Origin: a virus
Taxonomy: Duplodnaviria > Caudoviricetes
IMG/VR virus record: IMGVR_UViG_3300048576_000478
Location: 1-24,924 of that record
Length of the DNA: 24,924 nt
Strand: one strand, 5' to 3'
Shown piece by piece: positions 3,895-22,661 of the stretch; positions within the stretch are counted from its first letter, which is position 1, and the number at the start of each line of letters is the position of its first letter. The notes under the pieces were generated by a model, which saw only the letters and a program-made list of their open reading frames with translations, had not been told where the DNA came from and did not search any database. The position numbers and the translations under genes were made by a program.

Positions 3895-3927
3895 TTTGTA
3901 CCTTTACTTTTTTAAATAATCGAATTC

Positions 3928-4074: not shown

Positions 4075-4090
4075 TCATTCCTCCTTTTCA

Positions 4091-4357
4091 TTATATAGAC
4101 GTATTTGGCCATACAACATTAGTAGGGAATCCGCTTTGTGAAGTAATATCCCTTAAATCTTGAATGTATTGTAAAACTTCTAGATATGTTTCCCTTGTAT
4201 CATTTGGTAGTATTCCAAGGGCTACTTGTCTTTCATACCTTTCTGCTCGCCATACTATTTCTTCAATTCTCTTATCGCGTTCATTCCTAGTAATATTTTC
4301 AAGTTTTGCTTTGTTTTCTAAATCAACTTCACTTTGCGTTTTTCCTTTAATAATCAT
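4091..4357 (-). CDS. Tail fibre assembly chaperone (Tfa-like)
   Basis: R.ERDKRI...W...Y.Q.LRDIT.Q.GFP..V.WP signature; start MIIKGK at 4357 behind GGAG. Confidence 0.8.
   Translation of the reverse strand: MIIKGKTQSEVDLENKAKLENITRNERDKRIEEIVWRAERYERQVALGILPNDTRETYLEVLQYIQDLRDITSQSGFPTNVVWPNTSI
4092..4102 (-). promoter_or_regulatory. Late-promoter-like motif, near copy (ACGTCTATATA)
   Basis: Shares the core CGTCTATATA with the other copies; 17 nt before ATG 4074 at the head of the lysis cassette. Confidence 0.55.
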
Positions 4358-4625
4358 TATATTCTCCAGTGTCCCATTCAACGCAACTTTCAGTATAGAA
4401 ACGCCGAATAGTCAAATACAGTTCTCCATCTTTACGATATGCGTCCAGTATTCTTTCATTTGTGTTATCAGCAATATCAGAAAATTGAACACTATCTATA
4501 TCAAAGGAGAATTCTTCACCATCAATTAGTATAGTGTTCTCATCCTTTTTAAATATTTCTGTGTTTTCCTTTGCCCTTATTTGGGAATGCTCATTCCATC
4601 TTACAGGGCTATATTTTATTTTCAT
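4347..4625 (-). CDS. Tail fibre-associated protein/chaperone
   Basis: MKIKYSPVR...ILIDGEEFSF pattern typical of genes following gp53-like fibre tips; ATGA overlap with the fibre stop. Confidence 0.65.
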   Translation of the reverse strand: MKIKYSPVRWNEHSQIRAKENTEIFKKDENTILIDGEEFSFDIDSVQFSDIADNTNERILDAYRKDGELYLTIRRFYTESCVEWDTGEYNDY

Positions 4626-7600
4626 GCTTTCCACCTTCCAATAGCATACCAAGTCATATCATTTACCATAGCGGCAGTTAATGAATATGTGTAGCAATCA
4701 ACTTCAACATTAAACCCAGTTGTTGTAATTCCCCATATATGGGAGGCCTCCAAGAAAAATCCTTGGTTGTGGTCATAATTTGCTGAAACTGCGGGAATAG
4801 AATAAAAGGCGCATGGGAAAGTGCCTGTTAATGAGCCGTAGTAATTAGCATCGCGTTGGCCGATTACGTTTAAGCTGGCCGGAGTGCCGATATACCGATA
4901 GCAAATCAATGTGCCATCGTTATACTTTACATAATAACCATTACTATTTGAACCGCTCTCCACTATTCCTTGACCGATTGTCGTTTTTGAATTAACCGTT
5001 AATCCAGCAAATGTAGGGGAAGCAGTAGTAAGCAAGCTTTGGTTTAAATAACTTCCTAATGTTGATACATCATAGCCATCTACTGTTCCTGTTATGGCCA
5101 AATTGCCATTGATATTTACATTTCCATTGCTTGCTATAATCATTGCTGGATTTTTTATCCAATGTGAGGCCGCTTCTGGTGTTCCTATAATTAGCTGATT
5201 TGAGCTATTCATTCCAAGAGCCATAACACCACTTCCAGCCCTTGTAAGCGAAATATATGATAGAGGGTTTGAACTCGCGGCCCGAGTAGCACCCATAATT
5301 CCATATCCTACTGTATCAGGTGAAGCACCATCACCAGTTGCTGAGATATATGTTGATACAATTCCATTTGAGGTTGTGATGTTTAATCCCTCAAAGAAGG
5401 GGTATGAAGTTGTGGATAGGTTTTGGTTAAAATTGTATGTCCATACTCCTGATTGAATAGTTCTTTCCCTAAGTTTTCCATTACTGTCTTTACAATATAC
5501 AGTATTGGAATAATCTCCATCTCCGTTTCGTGGGCTTATCATACCAGTATCTGCGATTACATTTGTTATTGAATAATCATTATTAAAAACTGATAATCCA
5601 CCATAAATGAGTGTTGGGGCATCAAGGTGTATCCCGCCTTGGGAAGTGCTTAATGAAACATAATTTGACATTATATTGAAGTCAAACCATCCTGTGCCAC
5701 TTAAAACTTCTAAGCTTCCAAGGGAATTTGTAAAAAGTGATATGTTTCCATTGCCGTTAGTTAGGTGTAATCCGACTACGCCATTTTTGGTTCCAAGACG
5801 GATTATCTCTTTATTAACTTCAAAAATACAAAGGGAGCTATCCTTAGCAACCATATCGCCATTTTTAACTGAAAAGCTTCCATCAACTACAATTCTATTA
5901 CTTGGTTTTGCCCAAAAACCATATGCCGAACCATCCCAAACATCATTGCTTACAGCCCAATAAGTTGTGTTAGGCGGTTGATGGTTTATATTGCCATCAG
6001 CCAAGCTTTTATATATTACACCATTATAGTTAGCATATTCATTAATAGAATACTTCCTACCAGCATCCCAAGTAGGTCCATTTTTTAGAAGGCCGCTTAA
6101 ATATCCCTGTGCGGTTTGTGTTATTCCTGAACTATCCTGAACAGAAATTCGTCCATATGATTGGTCAAGAACAATACGAGCCCCTGAAGCATTGCTTGAT
6201 ATACTATTGGCTCCAATTGTCCATCCTCCAATTAATCCTGAAGCAGAAGTAATAGAACCAGAAAAAGAACCAGAAGTAGCATTTATTGAACCAGTAATGG
6301 AAACATTTGTTGCGGTTAAGTTTCCTGTAGAACTTAAAGAAAAGTTTCCAATAGAAATACTTCCCTTTGTCAAAGCCAATCCAGAAGAATTTAAACTATA
6401 CCCTGTTCCTGAAATACCAGAAGAGTTTAATACAACATCACCGGCAGTTAATGAACCAGAAGAGCCGATTAGTACAGCACCAGTAAATGAACCAGAAGTG
6501 GCCGTTATTGAACCTGAGAATGTTCCTGTGGCTGCAGATAGTGAACCAGAAAATGTTCCTGTTGCTCCTGAAAGTGCTCCAGAAAATGTTCCCGTGGCAG
6601 CGGATAAAGAACCAGCGAATGTTCCAGTTGCCGCCGACAATGAACCAGAAAACACTCCTCCACCATTTACAGTTAATGTAGTGCCATCAAATGTAAGCTT
6701 ATCCTTTAAAGAAAACTGGCCTTGCGTATTTACTAAAAATGGCGTATCAGCGTTTCCATAATTACCATTTCCTACATAGAGCTTATTACCACTAGCCAAT
6801 AAACCGCCTACACTTCCAGTCAATGCAGGAGTATTGATTGGCAAATTACCACCACTTAGAGCTGTTGCTATATCATTATTTGGTAGTGTAGTTCCATTAA
6901 CTGTTGCTGTTGATATATCAAAATTGCCCGTTCCTATAACACTATACTCATAGTATGCAAAACGTATTCCATCACTAGTAGGATTGTACCGATATTTACT
7001 TCCAATAACACAAACAGGGGTTGTTCTACCTTTACCGTCATTGAGGTTTACGACTGTTCCCAGGCTAATAAACTGATTGCTTTTGACAGTAGCGGTATAG
7101 GAAGCATATTTATAGTATTGCTGGAGTAAATTAGCTAAATACTTTGCATCAGTTTGTGAATGAATATATTCAGAAGTATATTTTAGTTGTGGTGTCCCTC
7201 CTTTGTTAGAAGTTTCAATTGTTGTTCCTGCATCCTCTTGCATAGAATCAGCAATTATTTTTAAACGATAGATATACTTTGTAATACTATTGGGGTTATA
7301 TATCCTAAGCTTGCCTTGAGATCCAGTATTTTCATATTCAACAGTCAATCCGCTATCCGATGCAATATCAAGATGAGCCGAATTCACATTCACTATTGAA
7401 TAGCCATCAGCGCTTGAATAGCTTGTCAACTGATAGGTTGAAGCATTACTTCCTGTGGGGTAATAGCTTCCAGCCGCGATTGGAATTAAACAATCATAAG
7501 TAGTTGTCTGACCTGTTGTATCATGAAAAATAACTATGTTTGAAACAGTTTTTATCTGGTTCCAGGTTATATCAGTTTCACGATATTGAACAATACTTCT

Positions 7601-8293
7601 TTTGCTGCTTATTCCTGTTCCACCTCCTTCACAAACAACATTGGTGCTTGGAGCAAGTGTAATGGTAGGGTTTATATTTGTTTGAGGAATAGTATAGATA
7701 TTTAGCTTACCTGACGAATCAAAATAGAAGACATATCCAAACTCATAAAGAACTTTATCTAGCAAATCCCAATAGGTCTTTCCATCAGAGTCCGTAACCT
7801 TAAATGCAATAGTCTGGGCTATGCTTGGAAGTGAAGATGCTAGTGTGACTCCTGCTTTTGAAGCTAGTTTATGAATAAAGCTATTTGAAGTGCTTGAAGA
7901 ATCACATACTTTTATTCCATTCAAATATGTAAAAAGACTGTTATCAGACACCCAAGCTTTCTTTAAGAGTTTTATTCCTGGGTCTTCCGCATGAAGAGTA
8001 AAATCATCCTGCCCTCTTCCACCTATTTCCCAGCTAAAATCGTCTGTTAAGTAGCCTGTAAAAAAAGATGATGCATCGGTGTTGGTAATGTTTACTAGAA
8101 CATTGGTACTTCCTGCGTTAGCAATCAATGGTGAAAGACAAGATGATTTTCTATTAACCCGAAATGCAATTTTGTTTGTATTTGCATGTAGCGAAGTATG
8201 CAAAGAAAAATCAGGCTCTATACTGTTTGATAAAACATCATTTGAGATATCGTAGCTTATTCCATTTATAGATAGCTGAAAGATCAATTTCAT
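4622..8293 (-). CDS. Large tail-tip protein: baseplate-hub-like N-terminus, Gly/Ser/Thr fibre repeats, CBM5/12-like module, gp53-like C-terminal domain
   Basis: TYWDLLDKVLYEFGYVFYFDSSGKL (hub-like); GSLSAATGTFS repeats; WDAGRKYSINEYANYNGVIYKS...PP...YW; SGSNSNGYYVKYNDGTLICY...FPCAF...WYAIGRWK. Confidence 0.85.
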   Translation of the reverse strand: MKLIFQLSINGISYDISNDVLSNSIEPDFSLHTSLHANTNKIAFRVNRKSSCLSPLIANAGSTNVLVNITNTDASSFFTGYLTDDFSWEIGGRGQDDFTLHAEDPGIKLLKKAWVSDNSLFTYLNGIKVCDSSSTSNSFIHKLASKAGVTLASSLPSIAQTIAFKVTDSDGKTYWDLLDKVLYEFGYVFYFDSSGKLNIYTIPQTNINPTITLAPSTNVVCEGGGTGISSKRSIVQYRETDITWNQIKTVSNIVIFHDTTGQTTTYDCLIPIAAGSYYPTGSNASTYQLTSYSSADGYSIVNVNSAHLDIASDSGLTVEYENTGSQGKLRIYNPNSITKYIYRLKIIADSMQEDAGTTIETSNKGGTPQLKYTSEYIHSQTDAKYLANLLQQYYKYASYTATVKSNQFISLGTVVNLNDGKGRTTPVCVIGSKYRYNPTSDGIRFAYYEYSVIGTGNFDISTATVNGTTLPNNDIATALSGGNLPINTPALTGSVGGLLASGNKLYVGNGNYGNADTPFLVNTQGQFSLKDKLTFDGTTLTVNGGGVFSGSLSAATGTFAGSLSAATGTFSGALSGATGTFSGSLSAATGTFSGSITATSGSFTGAVLIGSSGSLTAGDVVLNSSGISGTGYSLNSSGLALTKGSISIGNFSLSSTGNLTATNVSITGSINATSGSFSGSITSASGLIGGWTIGANSISSNASGARIVLDQSYGRISVQDSSGITQTAQGYLSGLLKNGPTWDAGRKYSINEYANYNGVIYKSLADGNINHQPPNTTYWAVSNDVWDGSAYGFWAKPSNRIVVDGSFSVKNGDMVAKDSSLCIFEVNKEIIRLGTKNGVVGLHLTNGNGNISLFTNSLGSLEVLSGTGWFDFNIMSNYVSLSTSQGGIHLDAPTLIYGGLSVFNNDYSITNVIADTGMISPRNGDGDYSNTVYCKDSNGKLRERTIQSGVWTYNFNQNLSTTSYPFFEGLNITTSNGIVSTYISATGDGASPDTVGYGIMGATRAASSNPLSYISLTRAGSGVMALGMNSSNQLIIGTPEAASHWIKNPAMIIASNGNVNINGNLAITGTVDGYDVSTLGSYLNQSLLTTASPTFAGLTVNSKTTIGQGIVESGSNSNGYYVKYNDGTLICYRYIGTPASLNVIGQRDANYYGSLTGTFPCAFYSIPAVSANYDHNQGFFLEASHIWGITTTGFNVEVDCYTYSLTAAMVNDMTWYAIGRWKA
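6483..6656 (-). repeat. 33-bp (11-aa) coding tandem repeat, about 5 units (GSLSAATGTFS-like)
   Basis: Recurring gaaccagaaaatgttcc-like units at 33-nt period with synonymous divergence. Confidence 0.85.
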
Positions 8294-8296
8294 TGC

Positions 8297-8437
8297 CTAG
8301 GCCTTCGCATAATAATCATGCGTCTTTATAAAAGTAGCAAAATCAGAGAATAATTCCTTTTCTGCATTATCCAAATGATCACTTTTTTTAATTACTATAG
8401 ATATTTGATTATCAGAATGTTTAATTTCGATCACCAT
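8297..8437 (-). CDS. 46-aa mini-protein paralogous to the tape-measure C-terminus (not in ORF track)
   Basis: MVIEIKHSDNQISIVIKKSDHLDNAEKELFSDFATFIKTHDYYAKA; RBS GAGGAG 7 nt upstream; fills the TMP-to-fibre gap. Confidence 0.7.
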   Translation of the reverse strand: MVIEIKHSDNQISIVIKKSDHLDNAEKELFSDFATFIKTHDYYAKA

Positions 8438-8439
8438 AC

Positions 8440-10638
8440 TTAACTCCTCGCATAATAGCCTTGCGTTTTTATATAAGACGTAAAATCAGCGAATAGCTGT
8501 TGCTCTCCACCATTGCCATAAACGGGAGCGTTGATATTCAATATGTAGGTATTGTTTCCGCCCGTATAACTTGCTGTTCCACTAGAGGAAATGCTTGATG
8601 TGCCACTTATTCCAGTCGTAACTGTTCCACCATAGGTGTTCGTTGAATAGTTGGTTTCCCATATCTTCTTGACTCTATCAGCTAACCCAGTAAATGCATC
8701 CGAGCTAAATGCGCCTGCACTTTCATTGTGTTTAAAATCCAAATTCATCCATTTTTGAACATTTCTTCCAAACACTTCAATAACACTTCCAACCCATTTG
8801 AATAAGTCCGAGATATACTTAACTGGCGACATGAGTACTTCAAATGCTACAGCCACAGACTTTAGTATTGGATTCAAAACCGTGCTTAGGATAACTGCTA
8901 TTACTTGAATGAATGGCGAAAGGATATTTAAGACTGGAATAAGGTTGTTAGTGATTATCTGGCCGATAATCGAAAACACAGGGGATAGAGCATCAAGGAT
9001 AGGAAGGAGTTGCTTCCCCAATTCAGCACCTAATTGCTTAATGGAACTGAAGAATGGAGAGATAATTTGATTTATTGCAGGAGCTAATACCTGGGCAGTC
9101 CCTTGTAGAGCAAGCATAATAATCTGTAAAACAGGGTCTGCACTTGTCAGGAGTGAAATAACGGGGCTTAATGCTGAAGTGACGGGAGCGAATACATCGG
9201 ATAGCTGTGAAAACAAACTTCCAAAACTATTCCCTAGCCCTCCAAAATTATCATGGACCGATGAGCTTCCTGAACTATCCCCACCTGAAAAGCTCTGGAG
9301 TAGGTTGGATGTTGTAACAGAGTATCCTGATTGGTTTGTAGGTGTATGGGCTTCCTTGAGGGAGTCCATAAGCATGGTCTCTATTTTGCTTTTTAGTTCT
9401 TTACCCTGTGGGCCTAGATCGATGTTTGAAATGATAGCAGTAAACTTAACATACTCTTCGTCAACTCTTTTTACCCGCTCATCCCCCGCTTCTTTTCCGA
9501 GAGCATTTGCTTTTGTAAGTGTTTCGTTATAGTTTGCTAAGAACTCTTCAAGCTTTTTGTAGTTTGATTTGACTAGCTTCTCATACTCTGGATTGCTCTT
9601 ATCTACATTTGAATTTGAAGGCTTAAAAGAAGCATTAAAAGCAGAGCCTTGCCCTAAGTATGGCATTACTTTTTCAAGCTTTTCCATCTCATCTGTAAGC
9701 TTGACAAAACTAGGACTTACAAGCTTAAGGGCATCAGCAGTATTTTCATTCGGGTTTCCAAATGAAAACATTTTCAACATGGCAGATTTTTGATCATTCA
9801 AATTGTCATACAGTGATTTTGCATCTTCATAGTTGCTTGGTAGCGCACCTGTTCGCTCATATGCATTTTGATTCGCTGTATTTGTTGCTGCTTTTGAGAA
9901 TGCTTCGGATATCTTCTTTGCTGCTTCTCCAGCTGATTTTATAAGAGGCTCAAAACTCATTGCGAGTAATGAACCCATACTTTCTTTTACATCATCAAAG
10001 CTAAGCTTGATATTGTTTAGTTCTTGAGCCAGGCCACCCGCCATCGCATCGCTTGTTTTTCCATACTTTTCAATAATGAGGTCAACTGCTTTTCCTGACT
10101 CTAATTCTGTTTTTGTGAGACTGGCAAAAGAGCTATCTAATTTTTCTAGCTTGCCCGCAGTTCCTGAATATGTTGAGTTAATTAGCTGAAAAGAAGAATT
10201 AAGGTCTTTACCTGTAACATTAGAATAAGCGATTGTTGCTTGTGTAACACGTTCAATTTTGGCTGTCTGATCTGGCCCATACAGATTAGCCATTTCAGCA
10301 ACTAGTTTTTCTACAGCATCTTTGCTCTCTAATGTCTTTTCTGCACTCTCATCTATTAGGCTAGTCATTTGCCTAAATCCAACTTCATTGCCGCCCAATG
10401 CGGTCTTAAGCTGGATCATTGTCCGTTCAACGCCAGCAAAATCTTCCATGCAGCTAAAGGCGGCTTCACCTAATTTCTTTACGCCTTCAATGATTGCTGT
10501 TACTGCAAAAGCCTTTGTTAATGTTTCCCCAAGCTTTGAAGTTGAAGATGAGAAAGAGTCTACATTTGATTTTGCTGATGAAATGCCTTTGGATGTTTGA
10601 TCCTCGGCACTGATTATTACTTTCGCCGTAGTAGCCAT
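8440..10638 (-). CDS. Tail tape measure protein
   Basis: 732 aa; N-terminal VIISAEDQTSKG, amphipathic helical repeats (L.P...) in the C-terminal half; follows tail chaperones. Confidence 0.9.
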   Translation of the reverse strand: MATTAKVIISAEDQTSKGISSAKSNVDSFSSSTSKLGETLTKAFAVTAIIEGVKKLGEAAFSCMEDFAGVERTMIQLKTALGGNEVGFRQMTSLIDESAEKTLESKDAVEKLVAEMANLYGPDQTAKIERVTQATIAYSNVTGKDLNSSFQLINSTYSGTAGKLEKLDSSFASLTKTELESGKAVDLIIEKYGKTSDAMAGGLAQELNNIKLSFDDVKESMGSLLAMSFEPLIKSAGEAAKKISEAFSKAATNTANQNAYERTGALPSNYEDAKSLYDNLNDQKSAMLKMFSFGNPNENTADALKLVSPSFVKLTDEMEKLEKVMPYLGQGSAFNASFKPSNSNVDKSNPEYEKLVKSNYKKLEEFLANYNETLTKANALGKEAGDERVKRVDEEYVKFTAIISNIDLGPQGKELKSKIETMLMDSLKEAHTPTNQSGYSVTTSNLLQSFSGGDSSGSSSVHDNFGGLGNSFGSLFSQLSDVFAPVTSALSPVISLLTSADPVLQIIMLALQGTAQVLAPAINQIISPFFSSIKQLGAELGKQLLPILDALSPVFSIIGQIITNNLIPVLNILSPFIQVIAVILSTVLNPILKSVAVAFEVLMSPVKYISDLFKWVGSVIEVFGRNVQKWMNLDFKHNESAGAFSSDAFTGLADRVKKIWETNYSTNTYGGTVTTGISGTSSISSSGTASYTGGNNTYILNINAPVYGNGGEQQLFADFTSYIKTQGYYARS

Positions 10639-10639
10639 T

Positions 10640-10873
10640 TCATATTCCTATTTTTTTATTTAATTCAATTATGTAAGCTTTGTAGACTTGTTGTATTTGA
10701 AGAAGAATTATCATGGTGATGTAGTCCTCATTAAGAAGCGAATCACCATGTGGGAAGTGTCGAAAGTCGCCGTTGTCTGAATCAATTAGTGGGAGGAATA
10801 AGCTAGTTATATATGGCAACCAGTGGCCGTATTCCTCCCATATTTCGTTATGATACTGGCCCTTTAGGACCAT
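10640..10873 (-). CDS. Tail assembly chaperone, T segment (expressed as a frameshifted G-T fusion)
   Basis: In the -1 frame relative to the upstream chaperone and open back to the T8 slippery site. Confidence 0.75.
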   Translation of the reverse strand: MVLKGQYHNEIWEEYGHWLPYITSLFLPLIDSDNGDFRHFPHGDSLLNEDYITMIILLQIQQVYKAYIIELNKKIGI

Positions 10874-10887
10874 CCCCGTTATTTGTC

Positions 10888-11253
10888 TTAAGCCTTGTGC
10901 TTCCCGTTTGTCGTAAAAAAAACCTTGTCTAGGTAGGCTTCAGTGATCTTTAGAAATGCAGGTGTATTTGAATATAAGTACTGGATAACAGCATCATTAG
11001 TCATAAGCTCTTTTTCTGTTTCATAGAAATTGTGGCTCTTAACATAGGCAGGAAGCTTTAGTCTCATATACTCTGCTACCTCAGAGCTTCCATGTTCAAA
11101 TGCATCGCGTATTCCCATAGCATCCCCATAATTGAGAAGCCCTAGGATAATAAATGCATCTTCATCTTTTTCAAGCCCAACAAGGGTTCCTAACTGTATT
11201 TCAACATTTCTAGGTATTTTTTCTTCATCTTTTGTTCTAACAAACATTTTCAA
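10888..11253 (-). CDS. Tail assembly chaperone (gpG-like)
   Basis: 121 aa between tail tube and TMP, with a slippery site near its 3' end. Confidence 0.75.
   Translation of the reverse strand: MKMFVRTKDEEKIPRNVEIQLGTLVGLEKDEDAFIILGLLNYGDAMGIRDAFEHGSSEVAEYMRLKLPAYVKSHNFYETEKELMTNDAVIQYLYSNTPAFLKITEAYLDKVFFTTNGKHKA
10915..10922 (-). other. Programmed -1 ribosomal frameshift site (T TTT TTT)
   Basis: GTT TTT TTT ACG; the -1 frame reads TAC GAC AAA CGG ... GGG ATG GTC CTA without a stop into ORF 10873. Confidence 0.8.
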
Positions 11254-11264
11254 TTCCTTTTACA

Positions 11265-12236
11265 TTAATAAGCAGTAGCTTGATTATCGATTACCTGGAC
11301 TGTAAGTGGCTCTGTAGAACCTACAGCTGTTGCACAGCCTGTAATGGTTGCCATAATAGGACCAGAACCAGAAACATTAGCTTTGTGCTCTGTAATTGCA
11401 ACATTGTTTAGTGTGATTACCACTTTATATTGTGTTGTTCCAGTAATAATGGATGGACTAAGAAGTGTAAAAACAACAGATGAAGCTACGGAGTCGGTGT
11501 AGTAGTAATTTGTTTTTAGTGTATCCGTTGTTGCATCAGCAGGAAGCTCTAGGGTAATGGTAGGCTGTCGAACACCATTGATAGGCTCATTCATGTATAA
11601 TCCAGAACTAAATGTCTGTGGGACATCTTGTGTTTGATTATTGAGATTAAATGAAACCTTGGAACAGTCGTAAGTTGTTCCAGCTATGGTAATGCTTCCA
11701 CCAATACACTTGTAAGCTTTAAGTGATGGGATAGTAAGGCTTTGTAATGCTCCTGTACTTTCATCTTTATACTTTACATTTAAAGTTCCAGTAACAAACT
11801 CTCCAACTTTTGCTTCAATCGAAAGCGAATCGACTTTTACACCAGAATGCTTCTTAACACCAAATCCTCTATCCATTATCACTGTATATGATGGGTTAAG
11901 CGTATTGGCATCGGTAAGAACGATGCTATGTGTATTTGCACCAGTCACAGGAGTTCCAGTTGTTACTGTATCCGTACCACCAAGTGCCATTTTGAATAGG
12001 TATCCTGCGCTTTCAGGTGTCAAAACAAAAGGAAATGATCCAGAACCCTTAATGGACATTGGGTCTTTTGCTTTTGGAGCTTTTGCAACAAGTAACGATG
12101 GCTCTTCTTTTCTATCAACAGAAGTAACAAGCGATTCACCACCAGATACGCTAACCACAATAGTTGGAGTCGCAGCTGTTCCATATGCTGTTTCTTTTCC
12201 AATTTGGAGTTGTCTTCCACTACCAAAATACGTCAT
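11265..12236 (-). CDS. Major tail tube protein
   Basis: QIGKETAYGTA N-terminal motif, PSYTV..DRG, G.KVDSLSI; beta-rich; synteny; RBS GAGGAG. Confidence 0.85.
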   Translation of the reverse strand: MTYFGSGRQLQIGKETAYGTAATPTIVVSVSGGESLVTSVDRKEEPSLLVAKAPKAKDPMSIKGSGSFPFVLTPESAGYLFKMALGGTDTVTTGTPVTGANTHSIVLTDANTLNPSYTVIMDRGFGVKKHSGVKVDSLSIEAKVGEFVTGTLNVKYKDESTGALQSLTIPSLKAYKCIGGSITIAGTTYDCSKVSFNLNNQTQDVPQTFSSGLYMNEPINGVRQPTITLELPADATTDTLKTNYYYTDSVASSVVFTLLSPSIITGTTQYKVVITLNNVAITEHKANVSGSGPIMATITGCATAVGSTEPLTVQVIDNQATAY

Positions 12237-12238
12237 TT

Positions 12239-12382
12239 TTAAATCTCCTCTTTAACGGCAATGCCAATTGTTAAATACTTAAAGGCTTCATTTTCGGAAA
12301 GCTCATAAACCTTATTCGCCTCATACTTATCATGGTTTCCTAAAAACTTAATTTTTATGTTTTTTACATCATCGTTTTTCAT
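12239..12382 (-). CDS. 47-aa phage protein (not in ORF track)
   Basis: MKNDDVKNIKIKFLGNHDKYEANKVYELSENEAFKYLTIGIAVKEEI; RBS GAGGA; directly after a late motif. Confidence 0.7.
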   Translation of the reverse strand: MKNDDVKNIKIKFLGNHDKYEANKVYELSENEAFKYLTIGIAVKEEI

Positions 12383-12394
12383 ATATTCCTCACA

Positions 12395-12406
12395 TATATA
12401 GACGCT
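12395..12406 (-). promoter_or_regulatory. Late-promoter-like motif AGCGTCTATATA
   Basis: Exact copy, 12 nt before ATG 12382, upstream of the tail tube gene. Confidence 0.7.
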
Positions 12407-12859
12407 TTATGCTTGATACTTAATCTCCAGAGTTATTTCAAATCCTTTTATTGTGGGAAGAGCTTCAATTCCATCGAAAAAATGGCATGAAGTAATTGAA
12501 GATGAAAGAATGGTATTTCCTATTGATCTATCTGCTTTAATAAGATCATCAAGACAATCTGTATAGCGATTTGCTTTTTCTGTTAGGTTATCAGGAGAAT
12601 CATCACGAACCACTATATATATTTTCACATCATTAGTAGCTAGATCATATGATACAAAACTTTCTCTTGTTTCATTTTGACCTAAGATATAAATCATTGT
12701 TTTGTATTTGTACTTGTCTGGATCAGGATAGCACATAACAACTTGGCTTGCTGATATATGATCTAAAACCAATGATGTGTTTATTAAATTATTCTTATCT
12801 ATATATGTATTCAGATTATTGATTATGAAGCTTTTCAATCCAGTGACTTCGTTATACAT
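12407..12859 (-). CDS. Putative tail terminator/completion protein
   Basis: 150 aa; synteny before tail tube; ...LIKADRSIG pattern. Confidence 0.6.
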   Translation of the reverse strand: MYNEVTGLKSFIINNLNTYIDKNNLINTSLVLDHISASQVVMCYPDPDKYKYKTMIYILGQNETRESFVSYDLATNDVKIYIVVRDDSPDNLTEKANRYTDCLDDLIKADRSIGNTILSSSITSCHFFDGIEALPTIKGFEITLEIKYQA

Positions 12860-13331
12860 TCTTTTTTTCTGCCTTCTTTACTTCTTTTTCAATGATTGTT
12901 TGAATGGTCTTATCATATTCTAGGCTTCCAATGAAATTATCTGCTGGCTCAGCTATAAAGTTCTTAGGTTGAATAACAACGCCTTTAGAGCGTATCCAGT
13001 TTCCGTTTATTTTGAATGTGAGATATTCATCATGTTTGGGTAGTATATTTGCACCAGCAGCCAGGACAAAGCCATATCGAACATTGTTTTTATTATTTGC
13101 TTGCGTTGGATAAATGTAAGCTATTGCTTTCCCTTTTTTCATTATTCGTGAAATTGATTTATAGAGTAATCCAGTCTGCTTATGCAAATAGCCTGAGTAT
13201 GCTTTTTTTGTTACACTCTTTATTTTACTGGATATAGCAGCAACAACTTTCCTTGGTACATTTTTTGTATTAACCTGTAGCTCTTCAAGTGAGTTTTTTA
13301 CATCGTCAGCATCAACCTTAACATTGATCAT
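12852..13331 (-). CDS. HK97 gp10-like tail completion protein
   Basis: Basic 159 aa; QTG.L.KSI and PKNFI.PA motifs; synteny. Confidence 0.65.
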   Translation of the reverse strand: MINVKVDADDVKNSLEELQVNTKNVPRKVVAAISSKIKSVTKKAYSGYLHKQTGLLYKSISRIMKKGKAIAYIYPTQANNKNNVRYGFVLAAGANILPKHDEYLTFKINGNWIRSKGVVIQPKNFIAEPADNFIGSLEYDKTIQTIIEKEVKKAEKKNV

Positions 13332-13855
13332 AAGATTGATAGCCTGTATTTATTCAGCGATTTCAAATACTTAGAAAAGTTTGTCGTGTTTTGAAATGTT
13401 CTCGAACCACCATCAAGTCCTACACTATATGTTGTTACACTTATATGCTCTCCAGCCTCAGAAGCCTTCAATGATGCAATTTCCAAGATGCAATTCTTAA
13501 TCAATGCTGGAGCATTAATACTCGTCCACCCTCCTTGATAAGTTGCACTGATTGTACTGTTCTTTGTAAACACTCCTGATTTGATTATTGCAAAGCACCC
13601 ATCTACTCTATATATACTTGAATCGATTATTTTGCTATCTACAGCAAGTACTAAATTTGAAACATTAAAAGAGCTGAGCTTAATATATGGAAGGCCATTT
13701 CCTATTAGTTTATCATCATATGCTGACTCAGAAATACTGTATCCTAAATACTGTGAAACTATTTCCTCTGCACATTCTATATAGTTAGTCTCTAGTACAG
13801 GATCACTCCCTTTTATTTCTGCAAAACTCTCCAATAGTTCAGTACTTATTAACAT
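13328..13855 (-). CDS. Head-tail connector (gp6/phiE125 gp8-like)
   Basis: I..AE..V..YLG, TYQGGW...P..IK..ILE, L.KYR; directly after capsid. Confidence 0.8.
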   Translation of the reverse strand: MLISTELLESFAEIKGSDPVLETNYIECAEEIVSQYLGYSISESAYDDKLIGNGLPYIKLSSFNVSNLVLAVDSKIIDSSIYRVDGCFAIIKSGVFTKNSTISATYQGGWTSINAPALIKNCILEIASLKASEAGEHISVTTYSVGLDGGSRTFQNTTNFSKYLKSLNKYRLSIL

Positions 13856-13867
13856 ATAAATCCTTTT

Positions 13868-13897
13868 AAAAATAGGATAGCTGATATTTCGCTATCC
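13868..13897 (-). terminator. Intrinsic terminator after the major capsid gene
   Basis: Minus strand GGATAGC-GAAATATCA-GCTATCC followed by TATTTTT. Confidence 0.6.
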
Positions 13898-13920
13898 CAT
13901 ATCTTTTTTAAATTGCTATA

Positions 13921-14976
13921 TTACGCAAGCTTTAGGTAGAAGAAAGCGGACTTCGAAAGAGGAGCACCATTCGCGTAAACGGAAGCCTGCTCATATACAT
14001 AAGCCGATCCCTTGACCTTAATAGGATCAACAATAATGTCACGAACAAAAGCAGCAGCGTACTTGGAAAGGTCACAAGCAACAGCAACATACTTTCCAGT
14101 AGTCATCGTGTTAGGAGCCCAATTGCTGAGAATAACAGGAACACCAGCGATCGTACCCTTGCCAAGATATTCAATCTCAGCAGCGGGAGAAGCACCAGTA
14201 GCAGTAATGACGGAGTTAATAACATCGGGATGCATAATCATGGCCATGTTACCAGAGGGGCCAACAGCCGAAGCGGTGCGAGCAAGTGACTGAAGCTCTT
14301 TCCAAGTTACCGCAGTTGCAGAAGCTGCCGTCTTCACATTACCAGAATAAGCTGTTGAAACAGAAGTGATCCAAGTACTATTGTAGATACCAGTAAACTG
14401 ATATGAACCAGTACCATTTAGAATCTGATTATCCCAAGACTGACCGAAAGCATCACCGAAAATATCAACAAGGGAACTTTCAATACTCGTGGTATATAGG
14501 GCAAGCCTATCAACAGGAAGTAAAGAGATGAAGGGGTAAGGAGTCAACGTAACTGGATTAAGAGCGGCAGTTGAAGCCGTAGTAGACTCATCACCATAGT
14601 TGACGCCAGATGGCATAGCAAGGCCAGGATCGAAAACAGGAATATTTGTTCTTGCATTATCTCCATAAAATATTCTAACCTTGGGAGCAATAAGCCCCTT
14701 CGAGGTCAAACCACGAACAATCTCACTTACAACCTCAACATTTCCAGCACCGTTTTCAGTAAGGTTCGAAATCGACTTGTTTGACTTTAAATCCTCTACA
14801 ATCTTCTTCACAGCACTATCTTTAGGATTAGTCTGAGGAATAGTCATTGAAGAAAACTTTTGTTCTAAGTCCTGAATCCTTGAATCAAAATAATCCTTAT
14901 CAACCTTACCAGCAGCTACACTTTGAAAAGAATCAATCTTCTCCTTAATGTCATTTACAATTTCTTTGTTTTCCAT
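13921..14976 (-). CDS. Major capsid protein, HK97 fold
   Basis: 351 aa; D.QILNGTG...F.GI, MHP, GTIAGVPVILS, AFF.LK; short helical N-terminal leader. Confidence 0.9.
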   Translation of the reverse strand: MENKEIVNDIKEKIDSFQSVAAGKVDKDYFDSRIQDLEQKFSSMTIPQTNPKDSAVKKIVEDLKSNKSISNLTENGAGNVEVVSEIVRGLTSKGLIAPKVRIFYGDNARTNIPVFDPGLAMPSGVNYGDESTTASTAALNPVTLTPYPFISLLPVDRLALYTTSIESSLVDIFGDAFGQSWDNQILNGTGSYQFTGIYNSTWITSVSTAYSGNVKTAASATAVTWKELQSLARTASAVGPSGNMAMIMHPDVINSVITATGASPAAEIEYLGKGTIAGVPVILSNWAPNTMTTGKYVAVACDLSKYAAAFVRDIIVDPIKVKGSAYVYEQASVYANGAPLSKSAFFYLKLA

Positions 14977-14985
14977 AGTTTTTCC

Positions 14986-15771
14986 TTATTTAAATGCACA
15001 CAAAATACTTCCTAACAGATCATCATCTTCTACTTCCTTTACCTCATCCCGAGGTTTTGGTTCATCGAAGTACAATGAAGCGATTTTTTTTGCTTCATTA
15101 TTGGATAGCCCTACATCCCGTAGAGTTTTCTCAAGATCCCTGATAGTCATATTCTCATTTTCTAATTTCTTGTTTTTTAGACTCTTAGGAGCCTTTTTAT
15201 ATGCCGATAGGTCAAATGCATCAAAAGCACTGTTTGTTATACATTTAGCTTTATTAATTGAATCAATAAATCCATATTGCAATGCTTCATCAGCAGTCAT
15301 CCATGTTTCTGCATTCATCATTTCTGAAAGTTTATTAATATCTAGCTTTGTTTTAGTCTGATATATTGATATTATTTGATTCTTTACTTTATCAAGCAAA
15401 TCTGCATCTTTTCTTAAATCATTTGCATTACCCAGGCTGATCATACTTGGATTGTGAATCATATAGTATGATCCCTCATCCATAATTGTTTCATGACCTG
15501 CCAATGCAATAATCGAAGCAATCGAACCTGCAAGCCCTATTACTTCAACAGTGAGCTTATCTTTTACGGTAGATAGAACGTTATATATTGCAGTTCCATC
15601 AATAACATCACCACCCGGAGAATTTAGTAATAGCCTTATATTGCTTGAGTCTTTTATATCATTGAATTCAACAGAGAAATCAGATATCGAAACGCCCATT
15701 CCGCCTATTTCGTCGTAAATTGTTATCTGAGTTTCTTCACTATCTTTAGCAATATCATACCATTTTTTCAT
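14986..15771 (-). CDS. Prohead maturation protease, ClpP-like
   Basis: IYDEIG, LNSPGGDV.DG.AIYN, GLAGSIASIIALAG, MIHNP, ETWMTADEA..YGFID. Confidence 0.95.
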   Translation of the reverse strand: MKKWYDIAKDSEETQITIYDEIGGMGVSISDFSVEFNDIKDSSNIRLLLNSPGGDVIDGTAIYNVLSTVKDKLTVEVIGLAGSIASIIALAGHETIMDEGSYYMIHNPSMISLGNANDLRKDADLLDKVKNQIISIYQTKTKLDINKLSEMMNAETWMTADEALQYGFIDSINKAKCITNSAFDAFDLSAYKKAPKSLKNKKLENENMTIRDLEKTLRDVGLSNNEAKKIASLYFDEPKPRDEVKEVEDDDLLGSILCAFK

Positions 15772-15785
15772 AGAGTCCTCTTTTA

Positions 15786-15797
15786 TATATAGACGCT
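15786..15797 (-). promoter_or_regulatory. Late-promoter-like motif AGCGTCTATATA
   Basis: Exact copy, 14 nt before the protease ATG; overlaps the portal stop. Confidence 0.7.
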
Positions 15798-16959
15798 AAA
15801 CTTCTGTATCTGCTTTTTCTATGCTTGTTAGTTGAGTTATTACTTGTAATCTGTCAGCAGCATCATCATTGTATCTATCATATCCAAGCATTTTTCTTGC
15901 TTCATTTGGTGTGATTAGCGAACCTCTTACATCTTCCCTAATTATTTTATGTAATGCATTCTCATCAGCTAACAGAAGATTTGAATAGCCAAATTTGAAT
16001 TTCATATAAACAGCATCATTAGGTAAAAGCAGTGTATTTAATGCTTCTGTAAATACTTCTGTTATAGGTAGAATTGTGGCTTGGTAGTAGTATGTATTTT
16101 GATTCTGCAAGTTGTTTCCATAATCGCCCGATATTCTTGCATATGGGAAATTGAACAACTTACATATTTCTCTTTCTGTTCTTTCTTTCAGTGATTTTAG
16201 ATCAGATTCAGCATTTGTAGTTTGATCAATCTCATGTACTTTACTATTTGCTGGAAGTGTAAATGCTTTTCCACTATTCGTTGTTAAGTCGTTTAGCCAC
16301 AGATTGAACTTTCTTTTTTCATTCTCATCACATAGTCCATCTTCAAAATTCGGTGGTAGCTCAATACCAATCCTCTTACCTAGAGAATTTGAAAAATAAA
16401 CCTCTATGTAACTCAGTATTTCAGAGTCAAGATCAACAATATCCTTGCATCTCTCAATTGCTCCATGACTTTTATAGTTATCGTATGAATTTGGATCGAA
16501 TATATGAAGGACTTGCTTATCAGTATATATCTCACCCGAATAGCTATATACTTTACAAAATGGTGCATTGGGAGTCCTTGTAACCACTACCCTATTCGAA
16601 TCTAGTATGGTCAGAGAATTTATGTTTTTATCTACACCGTATGTTTTGAACAAAAACACATTTCCTGTTTCTAGATATGATCTTGCGATCCGTGCAAGAA
16701 ACACGGATATTGTCTCCTCAATGTTTGGCCTTTCCAAAATCTTACATAATGGATGACTATATGTCCTATAGGTGCCTTCAGCATTTCTTTGATAAAGCCC
16801 AATGTCTAGTGACGCAATAGTATTTGAAATGGCATTTATCACATTCAAATAAGTTGGATTACTAGATGCGGGGAACACCCTAGGTAAAGTTGCATTTATA
16901 GGCACAGAGTAGGCACTAATTTTATTCCTTGGCTTAAATATCGAATCTATTATTCCCAT
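15796..16959 (-). CDS. Portal protein, HK97 family
   Basis: ISNTIASL, HPL..IL.RPN, GN.F, VLHI, IC..FN.P, TILP, TPNEARK.LG. Confidence 0.93.
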   Translation of the reverse strand: MGIIDSIFKPRNKISAYSVPINATLPRVFPASSNPTYLNVINAISNTIASLDIGLYQRNAEGTYRTYSHPLCKILERPNIEETISVFLARIARSYLETGNVFLFKTYGVDKNINSLTILDSNRVVVTRTPNAPFCKVYSYSGEIYTDKQVLHIFDPNSYDNYKSHGAIERCKDIVDLDSEILSYIEVYFSNSLGKRIGIELPPNFEDGLCDENEKRKFNLWLNDLTTNSGKAFTLPANSKVHEIDQTTNAESDLKSLKERTEREICKLFNFPYARISGDYGNNLQNQNTYYYQATILPITEVFTEALNTLLLPNDAVYMKFKFGYSNLLLADENALHKIIREDVRGSLITPNEARKMLGYDRYNDDAADRLQVITQLTSIEKADTEV

Positions 16960-16973
16960 TTTTTGCTCTCATA

Positions 16974-16985
16974 TATATAGACGCT
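16974..16985 (-). promoter_or_regulatory. Late-promoter-like motif AGCGTCTATATA
   Basis: Exact copy, 14 nt before the portal ATG; overlaps the terL stop. Confidence 0.7.
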
Positions 16986-18772
16986 TAAAAGTAGATATTG
17001 TAGTTGTACATTGGCTTTTTTATTGTTAGCTGTTCCTTCAAGAGTGCATGACTCATTATTGAAGTAATAACGCCATCGATTCTCTTAGATGATTGGAAGT
17101 AGTCTATTTTTTTGAAATGGATATTCTTATTTTGATCTAATTCGTAGTCTGCATTTGAAACCATCCAAGCCATTACTGGATTGCTGTCAATGATCTGTTT
17201 ATTTAATACAGCACTTAACCAATCTGAGCTTGCAAGACCCATCTTTTTCCAATCTTGACCGAAGCATAATATGTTTAAATTATTCTTCTTCAAATACCCT
17301 GGCTCAAACTCTGTCATTACTCTATTTAAGTAGACTGGGTCGGCTCCAATCAAAGATAATCTAGGATACTTTAATTTGTCCTCCATTATGTGCTTGACTA
17401 TATATCCATAGTTTATTGTTTTACCTCCATCCGGCCCTGTAGTTGGGATAATAAAACCTTCGTCTATCCATTTCCTGATATACTTAGAATCGCTCTTCAT
17501 TTTTCTTTCTATCTGTTCTTCTGGAATATAGAACCTATGTTTACAGTAATACTTCCCAATCTCTGGTATATAGAAATAAAGTGTATAAGCAGTAAAATCA
17601 TCGACTAGAGATAAATCGAGTCCTCCACAACATGGATAATCCTCAAGATGCTCTATGTATTTAGTAATGTCTTTATCATTATCAATAATGCATTGCCAAT
17701 CTTCGTCCCTGATTCCTTGTTTATTGTAACTGTTACTCCATATGTTTAAGCAATAAGCTTTAAAGCTAGCTTCACCCTCACTATTCTGCTTTGCTTCATT
17801 CAAGTCATTCTTTAGTACGTCAATGCTCCTTACTTTTCCTAGTGATGGATTTGCTTTAATCCAGTACTCTTCGTTCTCCCAATGAAACAAATCCTCTTCA
17901 TCCAACTCAAATATCATTGGCAGATAATTGGACACTGGAAACTTACCTGAGAGTATCTTTGATGATCTTTCATATTCAGCATATGCTGCATTACATTTGT
18001 TTGTATCAGCAGTAGTGATAATGACTGAAAGGTCATCGTTGGAGTTCTTTCCTGATTCAAGCTGCCTAATGATTTCATTGCTCTTATATAATGCAGCCTC
18101 ATCAAAAATAATAAATGACGGCTTTAATCCTTGTGGTTTTGTTCTTTGAGTAAATGTATAAACTTTTGATGAAGTAGGGAAATATGACATCTCATTTCGC
18201 CCATCGGTTAATTTCAAGTGTCCATTCTTGACTTCATCCCCTAGTAGTTCATTCTGATAAACAAATCCTTTTATTGTCTCAAATGTTTTCTGTGCTAGTT
18301 TGTATGTTGAATTAACGATGATTACTTCTGCTCCCTTTTGAGTAATCAGATTTAATAAGCATAAAGCTGAGATTAGCGTGGTCTTTCCATTCTTCTTTCC
18401 AACCTGGACATATGCTTTTGTAAACACTGGTGATTTATTACTCTTATACTTTATGCCATACAAACATCCCACCAGAAACAATTGCCAATCGAGCAGCTTC
18501 ATATTGTCGCCTGCTTTTGTGCTTGCAGAATTCTGGTAGGTACTTAATGCCTCAATAAGATTTACAGTCCTGTCTACTGCTTCGTAATCATAAAAAACAT
18601 CATCATACTGAAGTCGCTTTTCTATGAGCGAAACTAGCTGTTTAATCTTTTTACAATGGTTTTTAGGATTGTTCTTTACATCATTTACAAAACTATCAAT
18701 ATGCTTTTTACTTTCTTTCATTAATAATCTTATCTGCGAGTGACTCTCTACTCGTGCTCCTTTTAAGTTCAC
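16985..18772 (-). CDS. terL: Terminase large subunit
   Basis: L.DWQ, Walker A VGKKNGKTT, Walker B FIIFDEA, ITTA, W.KANPSLG, GGLDLS...DFTA, KRIDG; the true start may be MKESKK at 18721. Confidence 0.95.
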   Translation of the reverse strand: MNLKGARVESHSQIRLLMKESKKHIDSFVNDVKNNPKNHCKKIKQLVSLIEKRLQYDDVFYDYEAVDRTVNLIEALSTYQNSASTKAGDNMKLLDWQLFLVGCLYGIKYKSNKSPVFTKAYVQVGKKNGKTTLISALCLLNLITQKGAEVIIVNSTYKLAQKTFETIKGFVYQNELLGDEVKNGHLKLTDGRNEMSYFPTSSKVYTFTQRTKPQGLKPSFIIFDEAALYKSNEIIRQLESGKNSNDDLSVIITTADTNKCNAAYAEYERSSKILSGKFPVSNYLPMIFELDEEDLFHWENEEYWIKANPSLGKVRSIDVLKNDLNEAKQNSEGEASFKAYCLNIWSNSYNKQGIRDEDWQCIIDNDKDITKYIEHLEDYPCCGGLDLSLVDDFTAYTLYFYIPEIGKYYCKHRFYIPEEQIERKMKSDSKYIRKWIDEGFIIPTTGPDGGKTINYGYIVKHIMEDKLKYPRLSLIGADPVYLNRVMTEFEPGYLKKNNLNILCFGQDWKKMGLASSDWLSAVLNKQIIDSNPVMAWMVSNADYELDQNKNIHFKKIDYFQSSKRIDGVITSIMSHALLKEQLTIKKPMYNYNIYF

Positions 18773-19181
18773 AAACTAAATTGGCTCTTTCTACTGGAGA
18801 AACATAGAACCTAAACATGATTTGGCTATAGGATTGAATTGTCTTATTGAGCAGGCTTATGTAGTTCATTATTTGTTTATCATCAGTACTCGATTTTATC
18901 TGCTCTCTTAAATAGATAATGTTCTGAATTAATGGTGCGATAGTAAGCTGAATAAATGGCTTATCCTGTTCAGCAATTAAGCCTCTCAACAGAAGCGGTT
19001 CCATCTGCTTATTGAAAACATCCTTGGCACTTTCACATAGATCACTTGGAGCTTCAATCTCAGTAGCTTTGATTATGTCCTTGCTTGCTTCTTTTCTATC
19101 ACCATGTCGATCTTCTCTATATGTTCCTTCGAATTTTAATTCTTCTACTGGCTTCTTCTTTCTTCCTCTCTGCATCAACAT
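18708..19181 (-). CDS. terS: Terminase small subunit (P27-like)
   Basis: RGRKKKP.E....EGTYREDRH, AP..L...AK, SP.ERA; upstream of terL. Confidence 0.85.
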   Translation of the reverse strand: MLMQRGRKKKPVEELKFEGTYREDRHGDRKEASKDIIKATEIEAPSDLCESAKDVFNKQMEPLLLRGLIAEQDKPFIQLTIAPLIQNIIYLREQIKSSTDDKQIMNYISLLNKTIQSYSQIMFRFYVSPVERANLVCELKRSTSRESLADKIINERK

Positions 19182-19274: not shown

Positions 19275-19649
19275 TCAATGCCCTTTCTTTCTGTTTTGTA
19301 TTTCATATGCTGTCTTTATCCTGTGACATTCAACACATAATGTTTGTAAATTATTCTCATCAAAGAACATCTCTTCATTTCCTCTTGGATCAATTATATG
19401 GTCGACAGACAAATGTTCATGGCTACCACATCTCCTGCAATAATCATTCTCCTCCAAATGTTTCGCTCTAAGCTTTCTCCACCTTGAAGTGTTGTATAGC
19501 TTATCGTTGCTCCTATTTGCATTAGTAAATGGCTTTACTTGTGCTTCTCTAATTCTGGCTTGCCTTACAGCTTCAGGGAAATGCAAATCACAATATGATC
19601 CGTTTGTAGCTATCTTAAAACATCCAGCCACTTTACATAACTTCATCAT
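19275..19649 (-). CDS. Packaging-associated HNH endonuclease (HK97 gp74-like)
   Basis: C...GC......YC..H, Y.TSRWRKLR, C..CG...VDHI......NLQTLC.ECH..KT. Confidence 0.92.
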   Translation of the reverse strand: MMKLCKVAGCFKIATNGSYCDLHFPEAVRQARIREAQVKPFTNANRSNDKLYNTSRWRKLRAKHLEENDYCRRCGSHEHLSVDHIIDPRGNEEMFFDENNLQTLCVECHRIKTAYEIQNRKKGH

Positions 19650-20001
19650 CTTCTCTCGTATATATAGACGCTATATTTTCATAGCTAGTCATTCCATCAT
19701 TAAACATATCCTTCTTAGTCCTTGAATATAAAAACTTCTTTGCTGCTAAATAGGAATATGCTATAGGATTAGTTACCACTTCGCCTTTACACATTTTCAT
19801 TAGTACATATCCAGCTGTCTCACATGCTTTGTTATCAATCTCATATGTTGATAAATGCGTCTTTGCTTTTTTTAGTATTACTTTTATTTGTTTGATTGCG
19901 ATAATCTTAAGTTCGCTATACAAAGCTGATTCAAGACGTTTTCGTTGTGTTCCATTTTCCGTTTTTAAATACTCTTTTTGTAATTCATCTATACTATTCA
20001 T
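19633..20001 (-). CDS. Putative late transcription factor resembling an isolated sigma70 region 2
   Basis: LY..L..IA...I.......EIDNKACET...V..K......NPIAY.Y.AAK.FL parallels the ECF region-2 helix pattern; last gene before the late module. Confidence 0.45.
   Translation of the reverse strand: MNSIDELQKEYLKTENGTQRKRLESALYSELKIIAIKQIKVILKKAKTHLSTYEIDNKACETAGYVLMKMCKGEVVTNPIAYSYLAAKKFLYSRTKKDMFNDGMTSYENIASIYTREDDEVM
19661..19672 (-). promoter_or_regulatory. Late-promoter-like motif AGCGTCTATATA
   Basis: Exact copy, 11-14 nt before the HNH ATG(s); lies inside the 3' end of the 122-aa ORF. Confidence 0.7.
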
Positions 20002-20868: not shown

Positions 20869-21936
20869 TTACATTACTTCTTTGAGCTTCACACTTACAC
20901 CATGATTCTTTATGTTTTCAACAAAGCCAAACTCATTAATATAGCCAGATTGACCCAATGAGTGATCATAAGCATATCCATTATCCCATACATATACTTT
21001 GTAGGTTTTATGGACTCTTTTATCAAATGATACTTTTGACTTCCATCTATACTCTGATGAATTTGAGGATTTTGCTTTTAGGTCATATCTACTCATTCTG
21101 CTCTGTAGCTCAATATCACTGAGTGCCCTCCCCTCCTTTTTCATTATTTTGGGGAATTTTTCATAGTCTCCATGGGCAACAATAATGAGGTCATCTTTAT
21201 CAGGAATGCTTGTAAGTTTTTCTTTATGAAAAAATCTTTTGCATAGCTTAGGAAACCTATTCAATCCCTTTATCATTTTTTCTTCATCAAATACTTTACA
21301 TAGTGCATACTGGCAACAAAGCCTAAATTCAAGCACATTTCTCAACCTACTTAAGGTCATTTTGTCAGCTTCTTTTCCATTTTGAAATTTGCCAATTACT
21401 TTTGATAACTCCTCATAGCTCATGTCCCCAAGCATTACAGCCCTAAACACCTGAGCTTCAACGCTATTTAGGTACTTAAAGAAATCATTGTTAGCATTCT
21501 GAAGTTGCACTAGCAGATAAGCCTTTTCTATTTTTTCTTCCATTCCTTGCCCCTCTACATATTGACGATATGATACTTTTCCTAATTCAGTGTCATCTTC
21601 AATGAAAATCTCATTTACTCTTTCCTTACACTTATATGTTTTGAGATTCCTAAATGCTTCCCTTTTTGCATTCATGTAAGGTTCCCTACCTATGAAACAC
21701 TTATAGGTGAAGCACTTAACGATATCGAACTTATCATCATATTCAGTGGGGATTTGAAATGTAGGGATCATCTTTTTAACTATGCGTCTTGCGATTCTTT
21801 CAAATTCTATCTCTAGATATACTTGAAGGTTCTCAGGTTCGCATAAAAATGCATTGGATTTCATAAAGTACGAAAGAATGTCACTGGTGATTTTTCCGAT
21901 GTTCTTGTTTAGTATTGCTGGTGCAGAATCATTCAT
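20869..21936 (-). CDS. Sigma-factor-like protein with region 4 HTH and C-terminal extension
   Basis: LNSVEAQVFRAVMLGDMSYEELSKVIG...KMTLSRLRNVLE matches the sigma region-4 pattern; weakly region-2-like N-terminal half. Confidence 0.55.
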   Translation of the reverse strand: MNDSAPAILNKNIGKITSDILSYFMKSNAFLCEPENLQVYLEIEFERIARRIVKKMIPTFQIPTEYDDKFDIVKCFTYKCFIGREPYMNAKREAFRNLKTYKCKERVNEIFIEDDTELGKVSYRQYVEGQGMEEKIEKAYLLVQLQNANNDFFKYLNSVEAQVFRAVMLGDMSYEELSKVIGKFQNGKEADKMTLSRLRNVLEFRLCCQYALCKVFDEEKMIKGLNRFPKLCKRFFHKEKLTSIPDKDDLIIVAHGDYEKFPKIMKKEGRALSDIELQSRMSRYDLKAKSSNSSEYRWKSKVSFDKRVHKTYKVYVWDNGYAYDHSLGQSGYINEFGFVENIKNHGVSVKLKEVM

Positions 21937-22324: not shown

Positions 22325-22335
22325 CAACTACCTAG

Positions 22336-22578: not shown

Positions 22579-22661
22579 TGATTTTCTCCTTCTCTACTCA
22601 TGTCACAGAACAAGTGCAACGCACTTTTTAACCCACAGGAATGATATGTAGATGGGGCAGA

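Follow-up and report, generated by a model that had tools for sequence, protein, structure and literature searches.

Which protein, and which DNA signal, would turn on the late genes of the prophage carried on positions 1 to 24,924 of IMG/VR virus record IMGVR_UViG_3300048576_000478 (Duplodnaviria; Caudoviricetes)? In this stretch of 24,924 nucleotides (nt), hereafter the window, a short repeated motif stands at late-gene junctions, and an open reading frame (ORF) of 122 amino acids (aa) lies just ahead of the late genes. A preliminary description had likened the 122-aa protein by eye to a stand-alone domain 2 of sigma factors (sigma2), and had named it the likely reader of the motif in what could be an undescribed late-transcription system. 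We consider it probable that this protein, made from the upstream operon, replaces the host sigma factor on core RNA polymerase and opens five late promoters that consist of a -10 element only. Its gene is the central feature of the window:

19633..20001, minus strand: 122-aa stand-alone sigma2-like protein, likely a late promoter-specificity factor (ORF, predicted fold, family, docking model)

Motif copies in the window

The motif AGCGTCTATATATA occurs three times exactly and once with one mismatch. Allowing up to two mismatches, these four matches compare with 0.23 expected, and none of 100 shuffles reached four. A fifth copy has three mismatches. Each of the five lies at a gene junction on the coding strand, just 5' of the ribosome-binding site, and three overlap or abut the stop codon of the preceding gene. 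The first copy was indeed located in the 3' end of the sigma2-like gene itself, as described earlier. The copies, with their predicted transcription starts (+1), are:

19659..19672, minus strand: motif copy 1 (exact), inside the 3' end of the sigma2-like gene (codons I110-T115), leads HNH-terS-terL; predicted +1 at 19657
16972..16985, minus strand: motif copy 2 (exact), at the terL stop, leads portal; predicted +1 at 16970
15784..15797, minus strand: motif copy 3 (exact), at the portal stop, leads Clp protease, capsid and connector genes; predicted +1 at 15782
12393..12406, minus strand: motif copy 4 (one mismatch), leads a 47-aa ORF (12382-12239), tail tube, chaperones and tape measure; predicted +1 at 12391
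4090..4103, minus strand: motif copy 5 (TACGTCTATATAAT, three mismatches), at the 3' end of a 96-aa ORF, leads a 48-aa ORF (4074-3928) and then small membrane genes; predicted +1 at 4088

The five window sites share no -35 element, and a scan for the sigma70 consensus yielded 54 sites versus 74 in shuffles, none of them at the motif. Two words that resemble the motif, at 8479 and 8322, were dismissed as promoter candidates because they lie inside a duplicated coding stretch for the C-terminus of the tape measure.

Motif geometry in related prophages

We gathered 256 loci, of which 223 had a usable terL, and collapsed them to 143 representatives before counting. In the terL tree, 55 of these representatives shared a clade with the window (support 0.999). 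The related prophages carry the variants GACTATA, GACTATT, GACTTT, GACTGT, CACTAATT, AACTAA and AGCTATAT, which precede the same genes: portal, protease, connector, tube and tape measure. In a de novo search, 18 of 36 clade loci had such a word before at least three genes; the 63 outside loci gave no more than three weak look-alikes. The motif varies between phages at -12/-11 and -8 (GTCT, GACT, AGCT, AACT, CACT).

Of the 852 matches in the clade, 16 (from 12 loci) had the core G exactly 12 nt 5' of an ATG in frame. The same spacing was found in 0 of 681 matches outside the clade and 0 of 242 in AT-rich outside loci, and four control patterns gave 0-2. In the 12-nt register, each of the five window sites starts on a purine that is the first base of a Shine-Dalgarno (SD)-like stretch. 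Across the clade, 19 of 35 SD-like words began at +1 to +3, and 23 further sites had none. Information at -45 to -21 did not exceed 0.13 bits over 74 sites, in agreement with the earlier proposal of promoters that lack a -35 element.

The simplest reading of the 12-nt spacing is a leaderless mRNA, which would place the element at -12 to -5. Judged by its sequence geometry, the motif resembles a -10-only promoter element. The 122-aa protein would read the single -10 element GTCTATAT at the five late-gene junctions and so open the late promoters. Transcripts would begin right at the SD sequence in the window phage, and at the ATG itself in many relatives. Made from the upstream early/middle operon, the protein would then fire internal promoters, the first of which would lie within its own last codons.

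The motif could instead act at the RNA level, as a translation enhancer, a translational coupling element or a processing site, in which case the helical protein would be unrelated to it. Its strand specificity and the placement of the window copies at stop-start junctions, three of them directly at a stop codon, would suit such a role. However, the sites form two distance classes, with a fixed 12 nt to the ATG or to the first SD base, as a transcription start would produce, and an RNA-level signal leaves the clade-wide link with the sigma2-like gene (see below) unexplained. We therefore consider an RNA-level signal very improbable.

Two other scans were made for the motif. An exact 14-mer plus ATG scan of viral contigs returned five loci with one copy each and no homology to window proteins, which we took as chance, and single-protein terL scans reached only distant phages, most of them from Pasteurellaceae, in which the motif is absent. 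One locus outside the clade (L099 on G032) carries a repeated motif of its own, (A)GTATTTATA, at the junctions before eight genes (P 8e-12; e.g. at 3165, 8244 and 11467). No family gene was detected there; a weak family match was dropped as a head-tail joining-type ORF among connector genes. This locus possibly represents another -10-only late system with a different reader.

Predicted fold and docking of the 122-aa protein

The 122-aa ORF runs from 20001 to 19633 on the minus strand, while the plus-strand frame is closed, and it overlaps both the upstream 88-aa ORF and the downstream HNH gene (19649 to 19275). Helices cover residues 4-13, 17-46, 52-71 and 79-96, and the predicted structure has the four-helix sigma2 fold. 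The best structural matches were extracytoplasmic function (ECF) sigma factors, e.g. Streptomyces ShbA and E. coli RpoE, whereas Foldseek against BFVD gave nothing at E<=0.001. The resemblance seen by eye agrees with the predicted fold, the structural matches and the docking model. Furthermore, alignment of the family profile (see below) with 20 ECF domains by HHalign gave a weak match, E 0.027 over 65 columns, in which regions 2.1-2.4 were in the expected register already noted by eye: EIDNKACE lay opposite DAEDIAQE, and NPIAYSY opposite SFSTWLY. At position 57, which aligns with an aspartate conserved in ECF factors, 133 of 150 members have an acidic residue; the 122-aa protein has N there, with D56 adjacent. 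Residue 95 is followed by 27 residues, a tail that is too short for region 4, as the preliminary description had stated.

As a stand-alone sigma2, the protein is predicted to bind the beta' clamp helices of the host's core RNA polymerase. We modelled the complex with residues 215-330 of T. denticola beta' as a stand-in for the host's own beta'. The complex scored 0.76 versus 0.01 for the best control, the docking runs had at least 88% of contacts in common, and the predicted local distance difference test (pLDDT) value of the 122-aa partner was at least 80. The mark used for docking was reached by 116 of 157 solved pairs and 2 of 215 mismatched pairs, counts that are only approximate with the alignment used here. 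Predicted contacts join residues 21-28 and 49-71 (regions 2.1 and 2.2) with beta' 274-294 and 301-310, which we take to be the coiled coil of the clamp and the stretch that follows. Complexes of sigma2 with the clamp have already been solved, so that a docking pass shows likeness rather than binding.

The same docking prediction would suit an inhibitor equally well, that is, a sigma mimic that displaces the host sigma from the clamp helices while a host sigma, e.g. an ECF, reads the motif. GTCT and GACT resemble ECF -10 cores, and DNA binding by the 122-aa protein is itself a proposal. Several points nevertheless make such a decoy improbable. The differences between phages at motif positions -12/-11 and -8 would be expected of a reader encoded by the phage more than of an invariant host factor. 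Helix 2.3/2.4 is conserved in the family (F79, L83, G86, V87, H89), although docking does not need it. A sigma70 TATAAT register would set +1 inside the ATG at leaderless sites. Moreover, host ECFs require a -35 element, according to the cited part of PMC7826278, and none is present at the motif sites.

A family of sigma2-like proteins

Searches with the single 122-aa protein recovered only itself and nothing in IMG/VR or GenBank phages, and one relative likewise had no match among GenBank phages. The loci gathered by terL alignments, in contrast, yielded homologues at E 7e-4 and 4e-3. Iteration gave two mutually homologous groups (E 1e-8): group A, of 127-216 aa, 5' of terL, and group B, of 111-144 aa, directly after terL. 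At E<=1e-3 the group A profile matched 765 clusters (50% identity) among 1.84 billion representatives, and the stricter limit of E<=1e-10 left 359. When the 122-aa protein was omitted, a profile built from 149 other members recovered it at 2e-13; these 149 members had themselves been found by a profile that included it.

Family members have a median length of 168 aa and a median tail of 28 aa past helix 2.4; the tail reaches at least 70 residues in 16 of 150. No sigma4 family was among the matches listed for the 150 members (the first 25 of 81 Pfam families), and the family profile matched the sigma4 profile at E 0.19. Sequence likeness to sigma2 is weak: Sigma70_ECF was touched by 2 of 150 members and NCBIfam sigma models by 5 of 150, the best matches of members to Sigma70_r2 or ECF profiles had E 0.004-0.03, all below cut-off strength, and family profiles recovered no sigma among PDB sequences. 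The family alignments contained no stretch conserved enough to scan contigs.

We searched for a clamp-binding motif, Qxx[LM]F or Qxx[LM]xF, outside the sigma2-like domain. It was present in 72 of 150 members, compared with a shuffle mean of 6 and a maximum of 14. A tighter pattern, tuned on the sequences, occurred in 10 of 33 locus members versus 6 of 412 other phage proteins. The bacterial beta-clamp-binding consensus is QL[SD]LF, and Mu C uses QHDLF/QPDLF in late transcription (PMC12867686, in part). In about half of the family, the QxxLF-type peptide would likely bind the host beta sliding clamp and provide the anchoring that sigma4 normally gives. The 122-aa protein has no such motif, and because it lacks a clamp peptide of its own it would act at a basal level or with a co-activator.

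Group B homologues were seen between terL and portal in L030 (11747-12085), L031 (2262-2603), L106, L109, L111, L114, L117 and L118, with two in tandem in L114; the two long loci yielded no repeated motif. In another prophage (L069:8570-8590), the phage's own motif stands 11 nt before the ATG of its sigma2-like gene, which suggests positive autoregulation there.

Candidate readers of the motif

On whole records, the family gene was found in 15 of 31 close relatives, in 9 of 10 that were at least 79% complete and in 5 of 6 that were at least 90% complete. It was found in none of 19 outgroup records, 6 of which were at least 90% complete. In the single miss (G019), the record breaks off within a gene that, in relative G023, lies next before the sigma2 gene. 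From this co-occurrence and the motif geometry, we infer that the 122-aa protein reads the motif. A residue-to-base code sought in 19 protein-motif pairs proved inseparable from descent.

The preliminary description had overlooked a second candidate:

20869..21936, minus strand: 355-aa ORF, weakly similar to the sigma70 family; a rival or partner factor that may serve early/middle genes and is not conserved together with the motif

This protein might read the motif either alone, as a complete sigma factor, or together with the 122-aa protein, to which it would add a sigma4 domain in the manner of SigO-RsoA, but we regard this as unlikely. Its N-terminal two thirds are weakly sigma70-like and its C-terminal part is beta-rich. 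It matches TIGR02937 (sigma70-ECF) weakly, at E 0.015, or 0.007 for the first 212 aa; sigma70-family and Sigma70_r4_2 clusters are among its Atlas features at 0.92; and residues 143-186 align weakly to sigma4 (E 0.16). The AlphaFold2 model was unusable (pLDDT 34). The ORF lies 0.9 kb upstream of the 122-aa ORF in the same operon direction. A homologue with 30% identity (E 5e-14) occurs in a divergent early operon of a related prophage (L043:3177-4058, minus strand; 73% complete record), where the motif is present and the sigma2 gene was undetected. Yet only 1 of the 31 records of relatives contains the 355-aa gene, and none of the 6 that are near-complete does, while the motif and the sigma2 gene are widespread. 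Sigma4 exceeded the Pfam cut-off in 0 of 31 records, with only eight helix-turn-helix matches below it, and a sigma4 partner should leave a -35 signal, which was not seen. The 355-aa protein may be a second, early/middle phage sigma.

Several results weigh against the 122-aa protein as a sigma factor that reads the motif. Sigma70_r2 and ECF profiles gave no match to it at cut-off, and the HHalign score was just above those of 30 shuffles and five phage control families. The 12-nt spacing was first spotted by eye and its pattern drawn from the same loci; with a looser pattern the peak weakened to 33 at 12 nt and 25 at 11 nt among 1,483 ATGs. The group B phages L030 and L110 showed no repeated motif. 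No family gene was seen in six partial records with the ACTAATT variant, one of which is the L043 record with the 355-aa homologue. The link between motif and family gene is clade-wide and is not independent of descent.

Comparison with known systems

In T4 late transcription, gp55 acts with gp33 and the gp45 clamp, and the cited parts of PMC7892883 and PMC2988020 describe gp55 as a phage-encoded sigma2-homology protein on the beta' clamp helices, with a clamp-binding peptide, basal activity without a co-activator, and -10-only late promoters in which the -35 is not conserved. The 122-aa protein is predicted to resemble gp55 in its clamp contact, and basal activity is proposed for it; its promoters would likewise be -10-only. 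A clamp-binding peptide is found in about half of its family, whereas the 122-aa protein itself lacks the terminal sliding-clamp motif of gp55. There is no sequence homology with gp55 (HHalign of the 150-member profile, E 0.33; no PHROG match). None of 24 window proteins had a PHROG match to a gp33 co-activator or a phage clamp; small ORFs upstream are unassigned in function and the record is possibly incomplete.

ECF sigma factors share with the 122-aa protein the helix register of regions 2.1-2.4 and the closest structures, and they read a six-base -10 element at -12 to -7 (PMC12019637, in part). According to part of PMC7826278, the ECF class requires both sigma2 and sigma4; the 122-aa protein has no sigma4 within 50 residues of sigma2, and its putative promoters lack the bipartite -35/-10 structure. 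SigO-RsoA of B. subtilis also places sigma2 function on a small separate polypeptide (PMC7826278, in part), but here no conserved sigma4 partner was found and no -35 signal was seen. Mu C/Mor is a temperate-phage late activator with QxDLF-type host beta-clamp motifs at its ends, a likeness that extends to the 72 members above and not to the 122-aa protein; it differs as a DNA-binding activator that works with sigma70 (PMC12867686, in part), whereas the 122-aa family is predicted to replace sigma.

The 122-aa protein would work like T4 gp55 yet belongs with neither gp55 nor the ECF class. The principle itself has a precedent in T4 gp55. Part of PMC7826278 mentions a Bacillus phage protein, Gp01, with a sigma2 domain only, so sigma2-only phage proteins outside T4 have already been noted; the same ECF census states that phage sigmas escape current models. 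We found no published account of the 122-aa family in open-licence PMC and bioRxiv main text, although supplements could list phage sigma-like proteins.

Gene order and host

The window is a siphophage-type prophage whose genes are read on the minus strand (ORF calls and family matches). A large serine recombinase (24924-23188) is followed by a few small ORFs, the 355-aa ORF, ORFs of 77, 69 and 88 aa, the 122-aa ORF, HNH, terS, terL, portal, Clp protease, capsid and connectors, and then by tail tube, tape measure, tail and small membrane genes. Two features lie downstream of the sigma2-like gene:

19275..19649, minus strand: HNH endonuclease of the packaging module, first gene after motif copy 1 (family match)
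3114..19181, minus strand: late gene block (virion and likely lysis) that the five sites would drive (ORFs and family matches)

The window proteins are on record on a 527-kb contig, which fits integration. A comparison of 2701-4100 with 22501-24924 revealed no att repeat. Since no repressor or replication gene was recognised among the window genes, part of the genome may be missing from the record, or the prophage may be defective. Named terL relatives are Treponema (30-35% identity), and of ten family clusters looked up, one carries the name of a Spirochaetia bin and another that of a Ruminiclostridium bin; a spirochaete host is therefore probable.

A strong intrinsic terminator (22300-22325, minus strand) after an 80-aa ORF divides the recombinase end from the 355-aa operon. 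On the opposite strand are a second HNH-like gene (22740-23162, plus), behind the recombinase, and three ORFs unassigned in function (1512-3053, plus), between lysis-like genes and a DUF72 gene. A 46-aa ORF (8297-8437, minus) between the tape measure and a tail gene looks like a partial duplication: its last 18 residues copy the tape-measure C-terminus (48 nt, 81% identity). The 1223-aa tail protein (4622-8293, minus) has 11-residue repeats of the type GSLSAATGTFS, with a 33-nt period at 6477-6659, and a tail-fibre match at its C-terminal end.

Implications

Sigma2-only transcription has been characterised in T4-like lytic phages. We give an even chance to a wider proposal: that at least 765 clusters (50% identity) of sigma2-only factors of 110-200 aa drive the transcription of late genes in temperate phages of spirochaetes through -10-only promoters that are often leaderless; that they arose from ECF-like sigmas independently of T4 gp55; that about half tether to the host beta clamp; and that members of the 122-aa type, without sigma4, clamp peptide or co-activator, are the smallest self-sufficient sigma factors. 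If true, this second, apparently independent sigma2-only family in temperate phages would mean that a 105-residue domain can be a working sigma. It would account for the control of late genes in spirochaete prophages, connect the clamp coupling of T4 with that of Mu, and offer small orthogonal sigma/promoter pairs, while the variation of the motif from phage to phage would provide natural protein-promoter pairs for decoding -10 recognition.
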